This document shows, one piece after another, positions 13,173 to 19,329 of a stretch of 64,000 nt of DNA (its first letter is position 1; every line of letters starts with the position of its first letter). Under the pieces are notes generated by a model, which had not been told where the DNA came from, ran no database searches, and saw nothing but the letters and a program-made list of their open reading frames with translations. The translations under genes and the position numbers were made by a program. The DNA comes from Candidatus Binatia bacterium (GTDB lineage: Bacteria > Desulfobacterota > Binatia > UBA9968 > JAJDTQ01): positions 928,001 through 992,000 of the forward strand of contig OY762897.2 of assembly GCA_963666515.2 (NCBI GenBank). The letters run 5' to 3'.

Positions 13173-14201
13173 TTGAGCCGGCGGACCGATGTGAACCTCT
13201 CCGACACCGCATCTCTCTTGCTGGCGGCGATGGCATTCGACGCCTTCATCGGCGACCCCCGCTGGCTCTACTGGATCGTTCCGCATCCCACGGCGGTCAT
13301 GGGCCGGGTGCTGGCGTTCTGCGACAGCCGATTGAATCGCCCCGCCTTCGGCCGCGCGGGACGCCGCTTCGCGGGGGCGATCTCCACAGTGGCCGTCGTC
13401 GCCTTGTCCGCCGTGCTGGCGGCGCTGATCAGCGCCGGCCTGAGCGGATGGCCGGTCGGATTCTGGGTGGAGGCTTTGCTGGTCTCGGTGCTGATCGCCC
13501 AGAACAGCCTGTACCGCCATGTCGCCGACGTCGCCCGGGCGCTGGAGCGCGACGGGGTCGATGACGGCCGGAGCGCCGTCGCCCACATCGTCGGACGCGA
13601 CCCCGAATCCCTGGATGCCCACGGCATAGCCCGGGGCGCGGTCGAATCGCTGGCCGAGAACTTCAACGACGGCGTGGTGGCGCCGGTCCTGTGGGGTCTG
13701 CTTCTCGGCCTGCCGGGCATCGCGGCCTACAAGGCGCTCAACACCGCCGACAGCATGATCGGCCACCGCGACCACTGTTACCGCGACTTCGGATGGGCGG
13801 CGGCGCGGCTGGACGATGTCGCCAACTGGGTGCCGGCGCGCGTCGCCGGATTCCTGTTGGCCGTCGCCGGCGTGCAATCCAAGGTCGGCAGCGCGATGCA
13901 CGGCCTGAGGATCATGTGGCGGGATGGCGGCGCCCATCGCTCGGTCAACGCCGGTTATCCGGAGGGCGCCATGGCCGGCGTGCTGGGCTTGCGTCTGGCC
14001 GGACCGCGCCGATACCGGGGCGTCGTGACGGCCGATCCGTGGCTGGGCGACGGTGCCGTCGAGGCGACCGCGGCCGACATCCGGCGCGCTCTCCGCGTCT
14101 ATGTCGGCGCCTGCCTGCTCCTGGCCGTGCTGGTGGGAGGACTGTTCGCCGCGTCGTTGTTTCTGGCCGGGGCGCCGATGCCGTGGTACGGGTGGGTTTG
14201 A
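13173..14201 (+). CDS. cbiB: Adenosylcobinamide-phosphate synthase
   Basis: GDP..PHP, IVGRD, ESLAENFNDGVVAP, YKALNTADSMIGH, SVNAGYPEGAMAG; start may be GTG at 13191. Confidence 0.93.
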   Translation: MSRRTDVNLSDTASLLLAAMAFDAFIGDPRWLYWIVPHPTAVMGRVLAFCDSRLNRPAFGRAGRRFAGAISTVAVVALSAVLAALISAGLSGWPVGFWVEALLVSVLIAQNSLYRHVADVARALERDGVDDGRSAVAHIVGRDPESLDAHGIARGAVESLAENFNDGVVAPVLWGLLLGLPGIAAYKALNTADSMIGHRDHCYRDFGWAAARLDDVANWVPARVAGFLLAVAGVQSKVGSAMHGLRIMWRDGGAHRSVNAGYPEGAMAGVLGLRLAGPRRYRGVVTADPWLGDGAVEATAADIRRALRVYVGACLLLAVLVGGLFAASLFLAGAPMPWYGWV

Positions 14202-15290: not shown

Positions 15291-15391
15291 ATGGTTGCAG
15301 GTGTTATATATGTGGCTTCCCAAGGTGCGTTGCAAGCGGCTTGACCGCGAGGTCGCCAACTCATCGCAGGGAAGAAGGACGGAGGCATCAA

Positions 15392-15604
15392 ATGGACCGA
15401 ATCGCCGTTGATCCAAGAATTCACTTCGGTAAACCATGCGTCGCCGGCACGCGTATTGCGGTGCAGGATGTCCTGGAACTCGTTGACGAGGACATCCCCT
15501 TCAACCAGATCATTCGCGACTACTATCCCGACATGACCGTCGAAGATATCCATGCGTGTATTCGCTACGCGATCGCCCTGGTGGGCGCCGAGGATTATCA
15601 CTGA
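15392..15604 (+). CDS. DUF433-family antitoxin (orphan)
   Basis: RIAVDPRIHFGKPCVAGTRIAVQDVLELV...YYPDMTVEDIHACIRYA; RBS GGAGG. Confidence 0.88.
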   Translation: MDRIAVDPRIHFGKPCVAGTRIAVQDVLELVDEDIPFNQIIRDYYPDMTVEDIHACIRYAIALVGAEDYH

Positions 15605-15613
15605 GAGGTAGAC

Positions 15614-15961
15614 ATGGAACCGGTGCACGGCTTCCGAATGAAGAGCCCCGTCCATCCCGGCGAGTTCGTCAAATGCGAAATCATCGAGGCTCTCGATCTG
15701 ACGGTGACTGGGGCGGCGAAGGCGCTCGGCGTCACGCGGGCGGCGCTGTCCGCCGTTCTGAACGAGCGCGCGCGCTTGTCGCCGGAGATGGCGTTGCGGA
15801 TCGAGAAGGCCTTCGGCGTGTCGATGGACACCCTCATGCGTATGCAGAACAGCTACGACATCGCCAAGACCCGCGGGCGGGCGGGCGAGATTGAGGTTGC
15901 ACAATTCGAGAGACAGTCACGCGGCAACAAGCCTCGTGTGGCCCTCCATACCGAAAGGTGA
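15614..15961 (+). CDS. higA: HigA-family antitoxin (orphan)
   Basis: PVHPGEFVK..IIEALDLTVTGAAKALGVTRAALSAVLNERARLSPEMALRIEKAFG. Confidence 0.88.
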   Translation: MEPVHGFRMKSPVHPGEFVKCEIIEALDLTVTGAAKALGVTRAALSAVLNERARLSPEMALRIEKAFGVSMDTLMRMQNSYDIAKTRGRAGEIEVAQFERQSRGNKPRVALHTER

Positions 15962-15997
15962 AACCCGCCCCGCCGCCAAGACGCTGCACCGCCTAGC

Positions 15998-16139
15998 GAG
16001 GCTTCGCCTCAGACCGACGAGGGGGTAAGGGGATTGGCTCCGGTCGCTTGTAGCAGGGATTGAATCCCTGGTCATGGGACCTTGCAAGGTCGGACCTCAA
16101 AGGGTCAAATGGGCATAAAAGCCCGAAGCAACCGGAGCC
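15998..16139 (+). other. Multi-branched secondary structure at the 5' end of the element
   Basis: Hairpin 15998-16010; 13/14-bp closing stem 16036-16049 with 16126-16139 enclosing hairpins at 16054-16070, 16078-16091, 16093-16106 and 16111-16124. Confidence 0.75.
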
Positions 16140-16143
16140 GGAC

Positions 16144-17751
16144 ATGAGCCTACCACAAACCGTAGCGGAAGTATTGCGCGATCACGTGACGCTGGAATAC
16201 GAGTCGGTGGATCGCCTGTACTTGAACCTGTATGTGCCGCAGTTGCAGAGCGTGGGCGGGGTAGTGGGGTATCTGCACAAGCACCATGGCCAGCGGTTTG
16301 CGTCGACGGTGGCGCTGGCGCCCAAGAGTCGGGAGTTCGTGCAGGCGGTGAAGGACTTTGCGGAGCGGGAGCAGATCGAGGTGGTGCACTTCAAGAAGGG
16401 CCAGCGCAAGGACGAGGTGACGCAGGAGTACCTGGGGCGGTTCAAGGGAACCGAAGGGGTTTTGTACATCGGGATAGCGCAGGAGAAGGCCCGTGTGATG
16501 CGCACCGAGCGGCGCCGGAACCCGGACACCGGGGTCACCTATCCGTGGGTGGTCTCGTCTACCGCGATGGTCAACCATGTGTATTTCTATTGCGTGGACA
16601 AACAGGCGGGGCCGTTCTTCATCAAGTTCTGCACCTACTTCCCGTACAACGGCAAGCTGTGCCTCAACGGCAACGAGTACGCCAAGTGCCAGTTGCGCGA
16701 GCGCGGCATCCCGTTCGAGGCTTTGGACAACGGCGTGCGCTGCTGCGGAGACCCCGAGGCGCTGCAACAGATCTGCGAAGGCTTCGATGCCGCTTTCATC
16801 GACAGACTGGCGCGCAAGTGGTTCGATCGCCTGCCGCATCCGTATACGCCTCAGGACCGTCGCGCCGGTCTGCGCTACGACATCTCCATCCTGCAAGCGG
16901 AGTTCAGCCTGACCCAGGTGCTCGACCGCCCGGCCTCGGGCCGCGTCTTTTTCGAGGACGTGATCCGCGAGAACCTCGATCTCGGTCGCCCCAGCCAGGT
17001 GCAGTTGATCTTCCAGCGCCGGGTCACCCGGCGCACCCCCGGTCGGTTCCGTACCCGGGTCATCACCGCAGGCGTCACCCCTTCCTTGCACGTGGACTAC
17101 AAGCACTCGCGCATCAAGCAGTACCACAAGGAAGGGCAGGCGCTGCGCACCGAGACCACCGTCAACGACACCTATGACTTCGCCCTGGGCCGGCGGCTGT
17201 CTAACCTGGCGGCGTTGTGCCAGGTCGGCTTCACAGCCAACCGTCGTCTGTTGCAGATAGAAACCATCAGCCACGACTGTGCCCTGGGTGAAGACGAACT
17301 CCAACGCCATCAACGCGGCCTGGAGTTCCACGGACAACGCGCCTCGGCCCTGCGCTTCGCCGATGAGCGCGTGCAGGCTCTGATGCAGGCCCTGCTCTTG
17401 TTCACTCTTTCGGCCCGCGGCTTCTCCAACCGCGACCTGCGCGGGCACCTCGGTGCACTCCTGGGCCTCGATCCCAGTCCAATGCGCCCGGGCCGAATGA
17501 GTTACGACCTGAGACGCCTGCGCCTGCACGGCCTGATCGAGCGCATCCCCGGCGCCTACCGCTACCACTTGACCGAACACGGCCTCAAGGTGGCGATGTT
17601 CTACACGCGTGTCTACAACCGCATCCTTCGCCCCGGCCTGGCCCATCTTGCGCCCGACGCCGTGAGCGGCAATACCAAGACCCATCGGCGCTTTGCCGCC
17701 ATCACCAGGAACCTCGATGCCATTTGCGATGAGGCGAAGCTCGTCGCTTAA
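16144..17751 (+). CDS. Putative transposase/replication-initiator-like protein with C-terminal winged HTH
   Basis: No DDE, HUH or Ser/Tyr recombinase motif recognised; RIKQYHKEGQALRTETT resembles the Rep_trans YxK...LRxE signature; C-terminal MSYDLRRLRLHGLIERIPGAYRYHLT is wHTH-like. Confidence 0.6.
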   Translation: MSLPQTVAEVLRDHVTLEYESVDRLYLNLYVPQLQSVGGVVGYLHKHHGQRFASTVALAPKSREFVQAVKDFAEREQIEVVHFKKGQRKDEVTQEYLGRFKGTEGVLYIGIAQEKARVMRTERRRNPDTGVTYPWVVSSTAMVNHVYFYCVDKQAGPFFIKFCTYFPYNGKLCLNGNEYAKCQLRERGIPFEALDNGVRCCGDPEALQQICEGFDAAFIDRLARKWFDRLPHPYTPQDRRAGLRYDISILQAEFSLTQVLDRPASGRVFFEDVIRENLDLGRPSQVQLIFQRRVTRRTPGRFRTRVITAGVTPSLHVDYKHSRIKQYHKEGQALRTETTVNDTYDFALGRRLSNLAALCQVGFTANRRLLQIETISHDCALGEDELQRHQRGLEFHGQRASALRFADERVQALMQALLLFTLSARGFSNRDLRGHLGALLGLDPSPMRPGRMSYDLRRLRLHGLIERIPGAYRYHLTEHGLKVAMFYTRVYNRILRPGLAHLAPDAVSGNTKTHRRFAAITRNLDAICDEAKLVA

Positions 17752-17859
17752 ACTACCGAGCGTTACAACTCGCGATGGCCTACGATAGTATTCATGTACG
17801 AACGAAGTCCAGTTCAAATATCTTGTCTTCCTGAGTCAAGATCCTGTCGATCAAGGATT

Positions 17860-19329
17860 CTAGTCGGCCGCCGCCAGCAGCCGGTCGATGTCCAGGGCCT
17901 CTTCGAAGGCGTCGGCCACGGCGTCCAAGGCTTCTTCCACGCCGGCTTCGTAGGCCGGACCGAATGCACCGTCAACGCCCATGGAACGGAGGAACTCGCG
18001 GCGGAAGGCGTCGCCGGCCAGGAGCCCGTGGACGTAGCAGCCCATGACCCTTCCGTCCGCGGACACGCTCCCGGGATCGTGTCCCTCGCCCTCGGGCACG
18101 AGGAACGGCCGGGAGGCGTCGCCGCCGGTGCTCTTGCCGACGTGCATCTCGTAGCCGGCAAAGGCCGCGTCCACGGTCGCGCCGGCTCCCGCCACCTGTC
18201 TGAGCGTCTTGGCGCCGGTGAGCACGGTCTCGTGTTCCAGGAAGCCAAGCCCCGGTTCCTCGCCGGCCAGCCCCTCGATGCCTTGCGGGTCCGCCACCCT
18301 TCGGCCGAGCATCTGGTATCCGGCGCAGATGCCCAGCACGGCGCCGCCCCGGCGCCGGTGGGCGAGTAGGTCGATGTCCCATCCCTCGCGCCTGAAGGCC
18401 CGCAGATCGGAAAGGGTGGCCTTGGAGCCCGGCAGGATGACCAGGTCGGCATCGCCCGGGAGCGGGCGGCCGGGCGCCACCATGTCCACGGTCACCGCGG
18501 GTTCGGCTAGCAGAGGATCGAAGTCGTCGAAGTTGGCGATGTGCGGCAGCCGCGGAACCGCGACGCGGAAGGCTCCGTTGCCGGCCCGCGCCGGCCGGTT
18601 GTCGAGTGAGAAGGCATCCTCCTGCGGCAGGCGCAGCGCGGCGGGGAGATAGGGGATGACGCCGAAGGACGGCAGGCCGGTGCGCGCGGTGATGATGCCG
18701 AGCCCGTCAGCGAACAGGTCCGCATCACCGCGGAACCGGTTGATCAGGTACCCTTGCAGCAGCGTGCGCTCGTCGTCCGGCAGCAGCTCCCAGGTGCCCG
18801 TCAGGTTGGCGATGACGCCGCCCCGGTCGATGTCCGCCACCAGCACCACCGGTACTTGCGCAGCGGCGGCAAATCCCATGTTGGCGATGTCATGGGCGCG
18901 CAGGTTGACCTCGGCGGCGCTGCCCGCGCCCTCCACCAGCACGAAGTCCGCCGCGGACCTCAGCCGCTCGAAGCTCTCCAGGACCACGGGCATCAGCTCC
19001 CGCTTCACTTCCTGGAAGTCCTGCGCGTCGTGGTTGCCGCGCACCTTGCCGCGGACCACCACCTGGGCGCCCACGTCGGACTGCGGCTTGAGCAGCACCG
19101 GGTTCATGTCCACCGAGGGTGGGACCCCGCAGGCCCTGGCCTGCAGCGCCTGGGCTCGTCCGATCTCGCCGCCGTCGGGCGTGACGGCGGCATTGTTGGA
19201 CATGTTCTGCGGCTTGAACGGCCGCACCGTGTGGCCGCGGCGGGCCAGCAGGCGGCAGAGCCCGGCGGTCACCAGCGACTTGCCGGCGTCCGAGGCCGTT
19301 CCCTGGAACATGATCGTCCTGGCTCGCAT
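17860..19329 (-). CDS. cobQ: Cobyric acid synthase
   Basis: [49 protein letters not shown]. Confidence 0.97.

Follow-up and report, generated by a model that had tools for sequence, protein, structure and literature searches.

The stretch of DNA analysed here, hereafter the window, comprises 64,000 nucleotides of a Candidatus Binatia bacterium (GCA_963666515.2, contig OY762897.2, positions 928,001 to 992,000 of the forward strand), and the unit at its positions 15993-17863 is an autonomous, recently active mobile element with a single gene. This element of 1,871 bp begins and finishes with CTAG, encodes a putative transposase of 535 amino acids, and belongs to a large, hitherto unannotated insertion sequence (IS) family whose reality we regard as a near certainty. 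We suggest, with moderate confidence, that this IS family is new and that its members move by means of a Rep_trans-like tyrosine nuclease that is joined to a MarR-type winged helix and probably acts through a circular intermediate.

A search of the element's own genome (4.67 Mb in 2 contigs) recovered nine full-length copies, 100% identical to one another, in the 4.66-Mb chromosome. When 60 bases per side were compared, the common sequence was found to start exactly at CTAG and to end exactly at CTAG in 9/9 copies, with unrelated flanks directly beyond these ends. The genome possesses CTAG at 1,197 sites in 4,663,458 bp (0.257 per kb vs 3.17 per kb expected from base composition; G+C = 65.8%), an approximately 12-fold under-representation, and because the site is so rare, nine of nine insertions at CTAG are far beyond chance. 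Contigs of four public runs diverge into different flanks at 15990-15992 and 17863-17866, and hence support the element boundaries independently. The mobile unit of about 1.87 kb flanked by CTAG that the initial annotation had proposed from the window sequence is borne out by these identical copies and their unrelated flanks, and so is its claim that terminal inverted repeats are absent, since an inverted-repeat search of the element found none that joins the two termini. The sole exact inverted match is 11 nt long (16001-16011 / 17730-17740), with its second arm 123 nt inside the right end, and its length is about what chance predicts; the protein C-terminus is not conserved in an alignment of relatives. 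Positions 17730-17740 are the last codons of the open reading frame (ORF) and read almost as the reverse complement of the left hairpin.

A 21-base left-end motif is present only at the nine copies in the whole genome, and hence no miniature derivatives are seen there. The flanks of all nine copies were searched in the genome and yielded no usable paralogous empty site, and no sigma-70-like promoter was found inside the element. Relative to replication, the direction of which was taken from GC skew (origin near 3.75 Mb, terminus near 1.45 Mb), six copies are co-oriented and three opposed, which are small numbers (n = 9). The cumulative GC skew itself jumps by about 2.4 units within 200 kb at G000:C1 3.8-4.0 Mb, far beyond anything elsewhere, which may reflect a large island of strong skew or a feature of the assembly. 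Two flank strings in the run contigs were considered as new jumps and rejected: the strings are absent from this genome, indicating that those element copies lie in other DNA of the samples. Outside the window, a fragment at G000:C1:2645461-2645643 consists of two adjoining pieces of about 92 bp that are 90-92% identical to element positions 88-180 and 507-599, and it has the appearance of a degenerate remnant, with an internal deletion, of a related copy. The copy at G000:C1:1651044-1652914 lies a few bases from, and outside, a palindromic repeat of about 100 nt (G000:C1:1652915-1653020) for which BLAST gives more than 100 matches, spread over both strands of the chromosome in the manner of a REP or MITE family.

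The protein matches no model of Pfam or NCBIfam above threshold. Pfam gave only a sub-threshold winged-helix match (AbiEi_4, E = 0.06) and NCBIfam 0 families at E up to 1; NCBIfam carries models for ISfinder families. The family is nevertheless very large: in a collection of 5.8 billion proteins all 8,000 scored candidates were homologues, and at the level of 50%-identity cluster representatives 10,355 match at E <= 1e-3 and 1,214 at E <= 1e-30. The 120 matches listed are 64-96% identical, possess no Pfam domain and are called 'hypothetical protein' where named. Many homologues occur on contigs of 1.7-3 kb, about the size of the element, which gives these contigs the look of collapsed repeats at assembly breaks. 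Among annotated plasmids, 28 records carry a relative (Burkholderia, Caballeronia, Rhodococcus, Mycobacterium and others); the names given to it are hypothetical protein, uncharacterized protein and, in a single case, ArsR regulator. In the ESM Atlas the whole protein matched nothing but unnamed clusters of its own family, and the N-terminal domain had no usable match among named clusters; PHROGs gave only weak regulator-like matches, and a sequence search of the PDB found nothing with the protein and only weak winged helix-turn-helix (wHTH) and chance matches with the family profile.

Species-representative genomes contain at least 571 confirmed relatives, and the 80 loci taken from them for the comparison of ends (57-66% identical in protein) are distributed over Pseudomonadota, Acidobacteriota, Planctomycetota, Chloroflexota, Actinomycetota, Gemmatimonadota, Verrucomicrobiota and other phyla. 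Within its own phylum the family was found in 19 of 401 sampled genomes, the host genome included. The element DNA is absent from 30 related genomes, bar two short left-end pieces in one congener (G016:C208:52810-52885). This high similarity across phyla together with the patchy distribution is the signature of a horizontally moving element. The two congener pieces match element positions 1-29 and 154-201 only (92-93%), which suggests a related element with a different leader interior.

The ends of the element are shared by its relatives. The left-end hairpin is present in 71/80 loci, as GAGGC/GCCTC in 60 and GGGGC/GCCCC in 11; no mixed forms occur, indicating that one stem pair covaries, and the loop is T-N-C in 66/71. 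The five bases ahead of the hairpin in these 71 loci are CTAAC (56), CTAGC (6), CCAGC (6) or others (3). In a sub-branch with ACCAGC at this place, considered further below, the bases before the left hairpin resemble the element's own right-end box (CAAGACC). The right end in relatives usually lies about 40 bases past the stop codon and reads CTTGA...(N)CAAG-N4-CTAG, with CTTGA in 43 and N-CAAG in 40 of 48 distinct right ends, and in one sub-branch a right-end hairpin has the same loop type and the same orientation as the left one. Because the search pattern behind these 48 ends itself includes CTAG, independent support for CTAG as the terminus comes from comparison of copies within nine other multi-copy genomes, where in most sets the shared sequence runs from CTA(A/G)C and the hairpin to CTAG. 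For instance, in a genome with eight copies five of seven pairs end at CTAG plus one base, one runs a further base, and one copy is truncated. The same end pattern was observed in 2/2, 2/2, 1/1, 1/1, 1/1 and 1/1 pairs of six other genomes, while in two further genomes ungapped extension broke early in 3/4 pairs. One genome has up to 14 matches to the element family. In the genome of locus L059 (G432), several 100%-identical partial copies are found, e.g. C24:48928-50304 and C24:52863-53323, and in one such pair the two parts lie about 2.5 kb apart and overlap by 9 bases, as would result from the insertion of another element. The initial annotation would have been contradicted by homologues that are single-copy and syntenic; what we observe instead are multi-copy sets in the nine other genomes and in a distant branch, most of them with ends as expected from it.

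The structured ends are asymmetric. Besides the 5-bp left hairpin there is the 158-nt leader, and none of 200 shuffles folds as well as this leader (z = -3.4); the right end alone folds no better than shuffles (z = -0.6). Between the left hairpin and the ATG the middle of the leader is variable, and it is closed by a long stem of GGCTCCGGTCG with CGACCGGAGCC. In a 32-element alignment RNAalifold kept 10 stem pairs, of which 7 show compensatory double changes. The folded leader probably hides the ribosome-binding site and keeps translation of the transposase low; translational control is the simplest reading of the stem, which may also act in single-stranded DNA.

The same comparisons point to the target. 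On the left side most relatives (56/71 loci) read CTAA in every copy, and on the right side CTAG. A simple 4-bp duplication of CTAG was rejected, because most relatives have CTAA on the left while their empty sites read CTAG. The uninterrupted site homologous to locus L019, which is of the CTAA type, reads CTAG in 4/5 relatives and CTGA in the closest one. For L047, also of the CTAA type, the one informative relative has ATAA-CTAG-TCAGACG where the element-bearing genome has ATAA-CTAA-[element]-CTAG-TCAAGTCAGATG. Empty-site searches found no uninterrupted homologous site for L024 and L062. Judged from these junctions, the target is CTAG and insertion takes place at CTA^G; the target's G ends up to the right of the element, while the fourth base on the left moves along with it. 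In the window element this first base is a G, and both its sides consequently read CTAG. The CTAG target proposed at first thus stands, supported by empty sites and the nine copies, while the pair of flanking CTAGs is refined in that the fourth left base belongs to the element. To the right of the element at L019, about 812 bp (L019:2860-3671) are missing in the closest relative, where the flanks lie 24 bp apart, and this is either a second insertion or a deletion adjoining the element.

Fifty independent insertions show a preference in the left flank (A at -4 in 39/50, A at -5 in 26/50, A/T at -1 to -3) and no mirrored preference in the right flank. A preference on the 5' side only fits a strand-specific reaction, and the orientation of insertion is set by the 5' flank. 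Among the eight copies of one Terriglobia genome, L058 differs from six siblings (L059, L060, L062, L063, L066 and L067) at 2 of 1,829 positions, namely the fourth left base and the base directly before the right CTAG, both of which flank the CTA core. An element base that co-varies with the left fourth base, as in an IS608-like guide, was dropped as a candidate, as L028 and L038 differ at that base and share the next 30.

The N-terminal part of the protein is probably, according to structure prediction, a crescent-shaped TBP-like beta-sheet of the Rep_trans kind, with two modules of five strands each. An AlphaFold2 model of the whole protein, built with 24 sequences that are 29-79% identical to the query, has a mean pLDDT of 85.8, and a second model of residues 1-348, built with 21 sequences of which five are only 20-23% identical, has pLDDT 85.6 and pTM 0.84. 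The best Foldseek match of the whole model in the PDB is 4CIJ, the Rep_trans initiator RepSTK1 (E = 3.7e-3, probability 0.99), with TBP also present; 4CIJ comes first again for residues 1-348 (E = 5.2e-3, probability 0.92), followed for this domain by archaeal, yeast, plant and human TBP. The high-probability matches in BFVD include A0A2N9QVX7 and A0A345MNV4, a giant-virus TBP and an inovirus Rep_trans initiator that, in the available portion of PMC13107129, are used to link Rep-Arvir to Rep_trans. The C-terminal part matches MarR, ArsR and SmtB repressors in the PDB (Foldseek probability 0.75-0.99), with weak Pfam wHTH matches in up to 6/24 members and profile matches to repressors at E 0.07-1.3, in agreement with the C-terminal wHTH recognised initially in the 535-aa ORF.

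The predicted fold also places the conserved residues as expected for this family. In Rep_trans, as described in the part of PMC4797284 available, the first strand is central in a 10-stranded sheet and strands 6, 9, 10 and 11 carry the conserved residues; D46, D142 and E214, the ligands of the metal, are on separate strands (1, 6 and 11), the nucleophile Y191 stands between R189 and K193 on strand 10, and R212-x-E214 is on strand 11. In the present family D23, R24, E114, Y149, G156, P167, N175, N196, Q251, E253, K325, Y327, R335 and E337 are invariant, also in the members that are only 20% identical; Y327 is so in 24/24 and 21/21 sequences of the two alignments, and K329 is at least 90% conserved. 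In the model D23 falls on the first strand, Q251 and E253 on the one with which the second half begins, K325-Q-Y327-H-K329 on the next-to-last strand (322-329) and R335-T-E337 on the last (333-340). The invariant residues of the model hence reproduce the strand order of the Rep_trans active-site motifs, as far as these are set out in the available text of PMC4797284. Rep_trans enzymes hold a metal about 5 A from the Tyr with three carboxylates on separate strands; D23, E253 and E337 lie on the strands expected for this and may be the corresponding residues. The likeness of KQYHK...LRTE to the Rep_trans tyrosine motif, which the initial annotation had pointed out, gains in the model from RepSTK1 as best PDB match and from the position of the motif on two adjacent strands. 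We consider a Rep_trans-like nuclease likely. The protein probably works like such a nuclease and shares its fold; it is not filed as a member of PF02486 because the Rep_trans HMM does not match it.

For the chemistry, strandedness, circle and replication we infer the following course. The protein would recognise the left-end hairpin and the right-end box, and its predicted winged helix would bind DNA. One strand would be nicked just after CTA at both junctions (CTA^R) by Tyr327, with a metal held by D23, E253 and E337, and the protein would become covalently linked to the 5' end. The 3'-OH of the flank would then probably prime strand displacement, as at a Rep_trans plasmid origin, until a circular copy with the junction ...CTA-(A/G)C-hairpin is set free by rejoining and a second nick, this one placed after the terminal CTA. 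By the reverse reaction the circle would be rejoined into a CTAG target cut after CTA, giving a product in which CTA occurs at both junctions, the purine at the left one coming from the element and the G at the right one from the target, which would be no true duplication. Such a mechanism would explain why inverted repeats are absent, why both junctions have CTA, why the element carries a purine of its own, why the target preference is confined to one side and why the copies are identical.

Several observations weigh against this reading. The scores of the fold matches are weak in absolute terms (E about 4e-3, TM 0.2-0.47, rmsd 11-13 A). The Pfam Rep_trans model PF02486 does not match the protein at E up to 1 nor the 24 members at E up to 10, and it finds nothing in the whole genome. 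When the family profile was compared by hhalign with five Rep_trans proteins encoded in other genomes of this phylum, the result was not significant (probability 1%, E = 0.05), even if the single alignment obtained puts KQYHK...LRTE on RIYDK...IRFE. The 6:3 orientation of the copies gives no support for lagging-strand targeting of the IS200/IS605 type. Neither a circle junction nor precise excision was seen in the assembled contigs of the public runs, which do not cover rare forms. The junction sequences fit nicking after CTA and a 2- or 3-bp duplication (TA or CTA, from staggered double-strand cuts) alike. Moreover, a sub-branch of seven loci (L065, L069, L080, L085, L090, L097 and L098) has ...ACCAGC before the left hairpin, without CTA. 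A more distant branch in genome G413, with three copies of about 1,740 bp (L112, L124 and L130) that are 99.5% identical and encode a protein only 20% identical to ours, has quite different ends and no CTAG. These two branches indicate that the protein family drives several kinds of ends.

Four other explanations deserve comparison with the proposed nicking and copy-out. The same Rep_trans-like nuclease could act on double-stranded DNA, where a dimer or tetramer would cut both CTAG strands of a double-stranded circle and of the target with a short stagger around TA and exchange partners; this would be conservative site-specific recombination with the geometry of a serine recombinase and without replication or a single-stranded intermediate. 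The palindromic CTAG, the CTA common to both junctions and an orientation not tied to replication direction agree with such an exchange, and the two changes in L058 flank the CTA core as an overlap heteroduplex would give. However, the preference for A at -4 and -5 in the left flank has no mirror image in the right flank, the two ends are asymmetric and their hairpins point the same way instead of being inverted, and Rep_trans enzymes are described, in the available parts of PMC4797284 and PMC5714925, as single-strand nickases, so we take double-strand exchange to be unlikely. It is improbable, in our view, that the protein is a divergent metal-dependent DDE-type transposase or another new nuclease in which catalysis falls to the conserved acidic residues, with no nucleophilic role for the tyrosine, and staggered cuts make CTA or TA a true duplication. 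The invariant D23, E114, E253 and E337, the resemblance of the CTA at both junctions to a 3-bp duplication and the statistical weakness of the fold matches would suit it. Yet no DDE, DEDD or RNase-H family matches at E up to 10 in the 24 members, no RNase-H-like structure is among the listed Foldseek matches, terminal inverted repeats are lacking, and the invariant K-x-Y-x-K and R-x-E on adjacent strands match the active site of Rep_trans. A known DDE or IS fold, which would have spoken against the initial annotation, thus did not appear among these matches or among NCBIfam families, and the absence of DDE, HUH or recombinase signatures noted in it agrees with the domain searches, which also gave no Y1_Tnp or HUH match in Pfam for the protein and 24 family members or in NCBIfam for the protein.

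The remaining two explanations give the protein or its leader another role. The MarR-like regulator fold of the C-terminal half, and the annotation of one distant plasmid homologue as ArsR regulator, might mean that the role of the protein is confined to DNA binding or regulation, or to replication of an excised form, while an enzyme of the host or of another mobile element carries out excision and integration in trans. This we hold to be very improbable, as a helper common to a single-gene element with the same ends across at least eight phyla is not to be expected and the N-terminal 345 residues, which carry the nuclease-like motifs, are the best conserved. The structured leader of 150 nt could also be a guide RNA comparable to the bridge RNA of IS110, with pairing to both target and donor, making the protein an RNA-guided recombinase. 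The leader is indeed highly structured with covarying stems, inverted repeats are absent and a short core is common to both junctions. On the other hand, the target is merely CTAG with a weak A-rich preference and no long specific site, and the covarying outer stem covers the ribosome-binding site and fits translational control; a guide function therefore has hardly any probability left. We retain the Rep_trans-like nuclease with a circular intermediate as the best explanation. The features of the element are collected in Table 1.

Table 1. Features of the element in window coordinates (feature, position, strand, basis or remark)
Left junction CTAG	15993..15996	+	9/9 copies begin here; CTA read as the target's, fourth base as the element's first
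Left-end terminal hairpin GAGGC, loop TTC, GCCTC (5 bp)	15998..16010	+	found in 71/80 related loci
Structured leader; long-range stem arms 16036-16049 and 16126-16139, several short hairpins enclosed	16036..16139	+	
GGAG in the 3' stem arm, seven bases before ATG	16134-16137	+	
Putative transposase gene, 535 aa	16144..17751	+	ORF list; homologues
N-terminal catalytic domain, residues 1-345, predicted TBP-like / Rep_trans-like curved beta-sheet	16144..17178	+	AlphaFold, Foldseek, alignments
Tyr327 codon, proposed catalytic nucleophile, in K325-Q-Y-H-K329	17122..17124	+	conservation, model strand
MarR-like winged helix-turn-helix, about residues 400-500	17341..17643	+	Foldseek, weak Pfam and profile matches
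Region of right-end subterminal inverted repeats	17820..17859	+	read from sequence
ATCTTG/CAAGAT repeat	17820-17825 and 17837-17842	+	read from sequence
GATCCT/AGGATT repeat	17840-17845 and 17854-17859	+	read from sequence
Right-end box CAAG-N4-CTAG	17852..17863	+	final G read as the target's; CTA doubles as cobQ stop

To the right of the element lies cobQ, encoded by the minus-strand ORF at 17860-19329 (GATase_3 6e-51 and CbiA in Pfam), the stop codon of which is the CTA of the right CTAG (17860-17862), as the initial annotation had read it. The empty site with a single CTAG predicted from this arrangement is found in part: the cobQ 3' ends of nine related genomes, none of which has the element, read CTAG in 3/9 and CTAC in 6/9. 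A low-depth contig in runs X3 and X4 joins the left flank (15993) to 18268, with a cobQ-like 3' end CTAT... and no element, and its source is probably a related strain or species present in these samples. Immediately before the element, 15341-15961 holds a DUF433 gene (1.5e-19) and an XRE-type HTH gene (2e-10), which look like a small toxin-antitoxin-like pair, and cobD is at 13173-14201.

The known catalytic classes of prokaryotic transposase are few, namely DDE, DEDD, HUH, tyrosine and serine recombinases, and Cas1. If the proposed reading is true, a class is added to these, and the family would be among the larger IS families (more than 10,000 clusters at 50% identity, in many phyla) and one that annotation pipelines have missed. 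It would then explain thousands of 'hypothetical' genes and many contigs of 1.8-2 kb at assembly breaks, supply those pipelines with a new IS model, and make available a compact system in which one protein directs insertion at a defined 4-bp site. Transposons would moreover be linked to the Rep_trans initiators found in plasmids, filamentous phages and conjugative elements, and the TBP-fold nucleases would show the connection between replicons and transposons that is already known for HUH enzymes.

Among known transposons, IS630/Tc1-mariner elements insert at CTAG or TA with a TA duplication and possess inverted repeats and a DDE transposase. The present element resembles them in its insertion at CTAG with TA or CTA on both sides, whereas it has no inverted repeats and no DDE match. 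IS200/IS605 elements such as IS608 have no inverted repeats, hairpins at the ends, a short target on the 5' side and an orientation tied to replication. The present element is like them in its lack of inverted repeats, its subterminal hairpins and its insertion beside a fixed short sequence without duplication; hairpins in direct orientation, the short fixed 5' target and, as proposed, a tyrosine nuclease are shared with the HUH Y1 TnpA system. Nevertheless, the enzyme here has a different fold, is about four times larger and lacks an HUH motif, and the 6:3 orientation of the nine copies gives no sign of a link to replication in these small numbers. The rolling-circle copy-out proposed here and the asymmetric ends next to a tetranucleotide recall IS91/ISCR and Helitrons (HUH Y2), but the nuclease is not of the HUH type and has no helicase domain. 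These three, IS200/IS605, IS91/ISCR and Helitrons, are the Rep-mobilised transposon groups given in the available part of 10.1101/2022.12.15.520654, and all of them are HUH.

Outside the transposons the closest systems are Rep_trans initiators (PF02486: RepC/RepD of pT181-type plasmids, RepSTK1 and inovirus proteins), which provide the best structural match of the predicted protein. They share with it the strand order of an Asp on strand 1, an acidic residue at the opening of the second half, basic-x-Tyr-x-Lys and Arg-x-Glu, as well as a DNA-binding domain that follows the catalytic domain. However, there is no significant sequence similarity, the Tyr-Glu spacing is 10 residues here vs 23 in RepDE, and a multi-copy chromosomal element of 1.87 kb with defined ends and a 4-bp target contrasts with a plasmid or phage replicon. 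MOBT relaxases (NicK of ICEBs1, RelSt3 and Orf20 of Tn916) likewise combine a nickase of the Rep_trans family with an HTH in integrated mobile DNA, according to the accessible portions of PMC6499999 and PMC5714925, but they serve conjugative transfer from oriT beside a separate integrase, while here one gene is present without conjugation genes. Rep-Arvir proteins (RepSNJ2, DUF7845) have, as far as the available text of PMC13107129 goes, an N-terminal TBP-fold nuclease followed by a MarR-like winged helix, an acidic residue near position 25 and the catalytic Tyr near 280-330, and were tied to Rep_trans by structure only, via the same two BFVD proteins as ours. They belong to archaeal viruses and plasmids and are replicative rather than part of a transposon, and DUF7845 (PF25227) has no match at E up to 10 in the 24 members of the present family. 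Full-text searches of the literature, with ISfinder and supplementary files outside their scope, found no description of this family or of any transposase of the Rep_trans type, and the available parts of PMC13107129, PMC5714925, PMC4797284 and PMC13595969 name Rep_trans enzymes as plasmid or phage replication initiators and conjugative relaxases only. We see about an even chance that, beside these initiators and relaxases, a Rep_trans/TBP-fold tyrosine nuclease constitutes a further chemical class of prokaryotic transposase, which would move a one-gene element of 1.8 kb by rolling-circle copy-out and rejoining at CTA^G.

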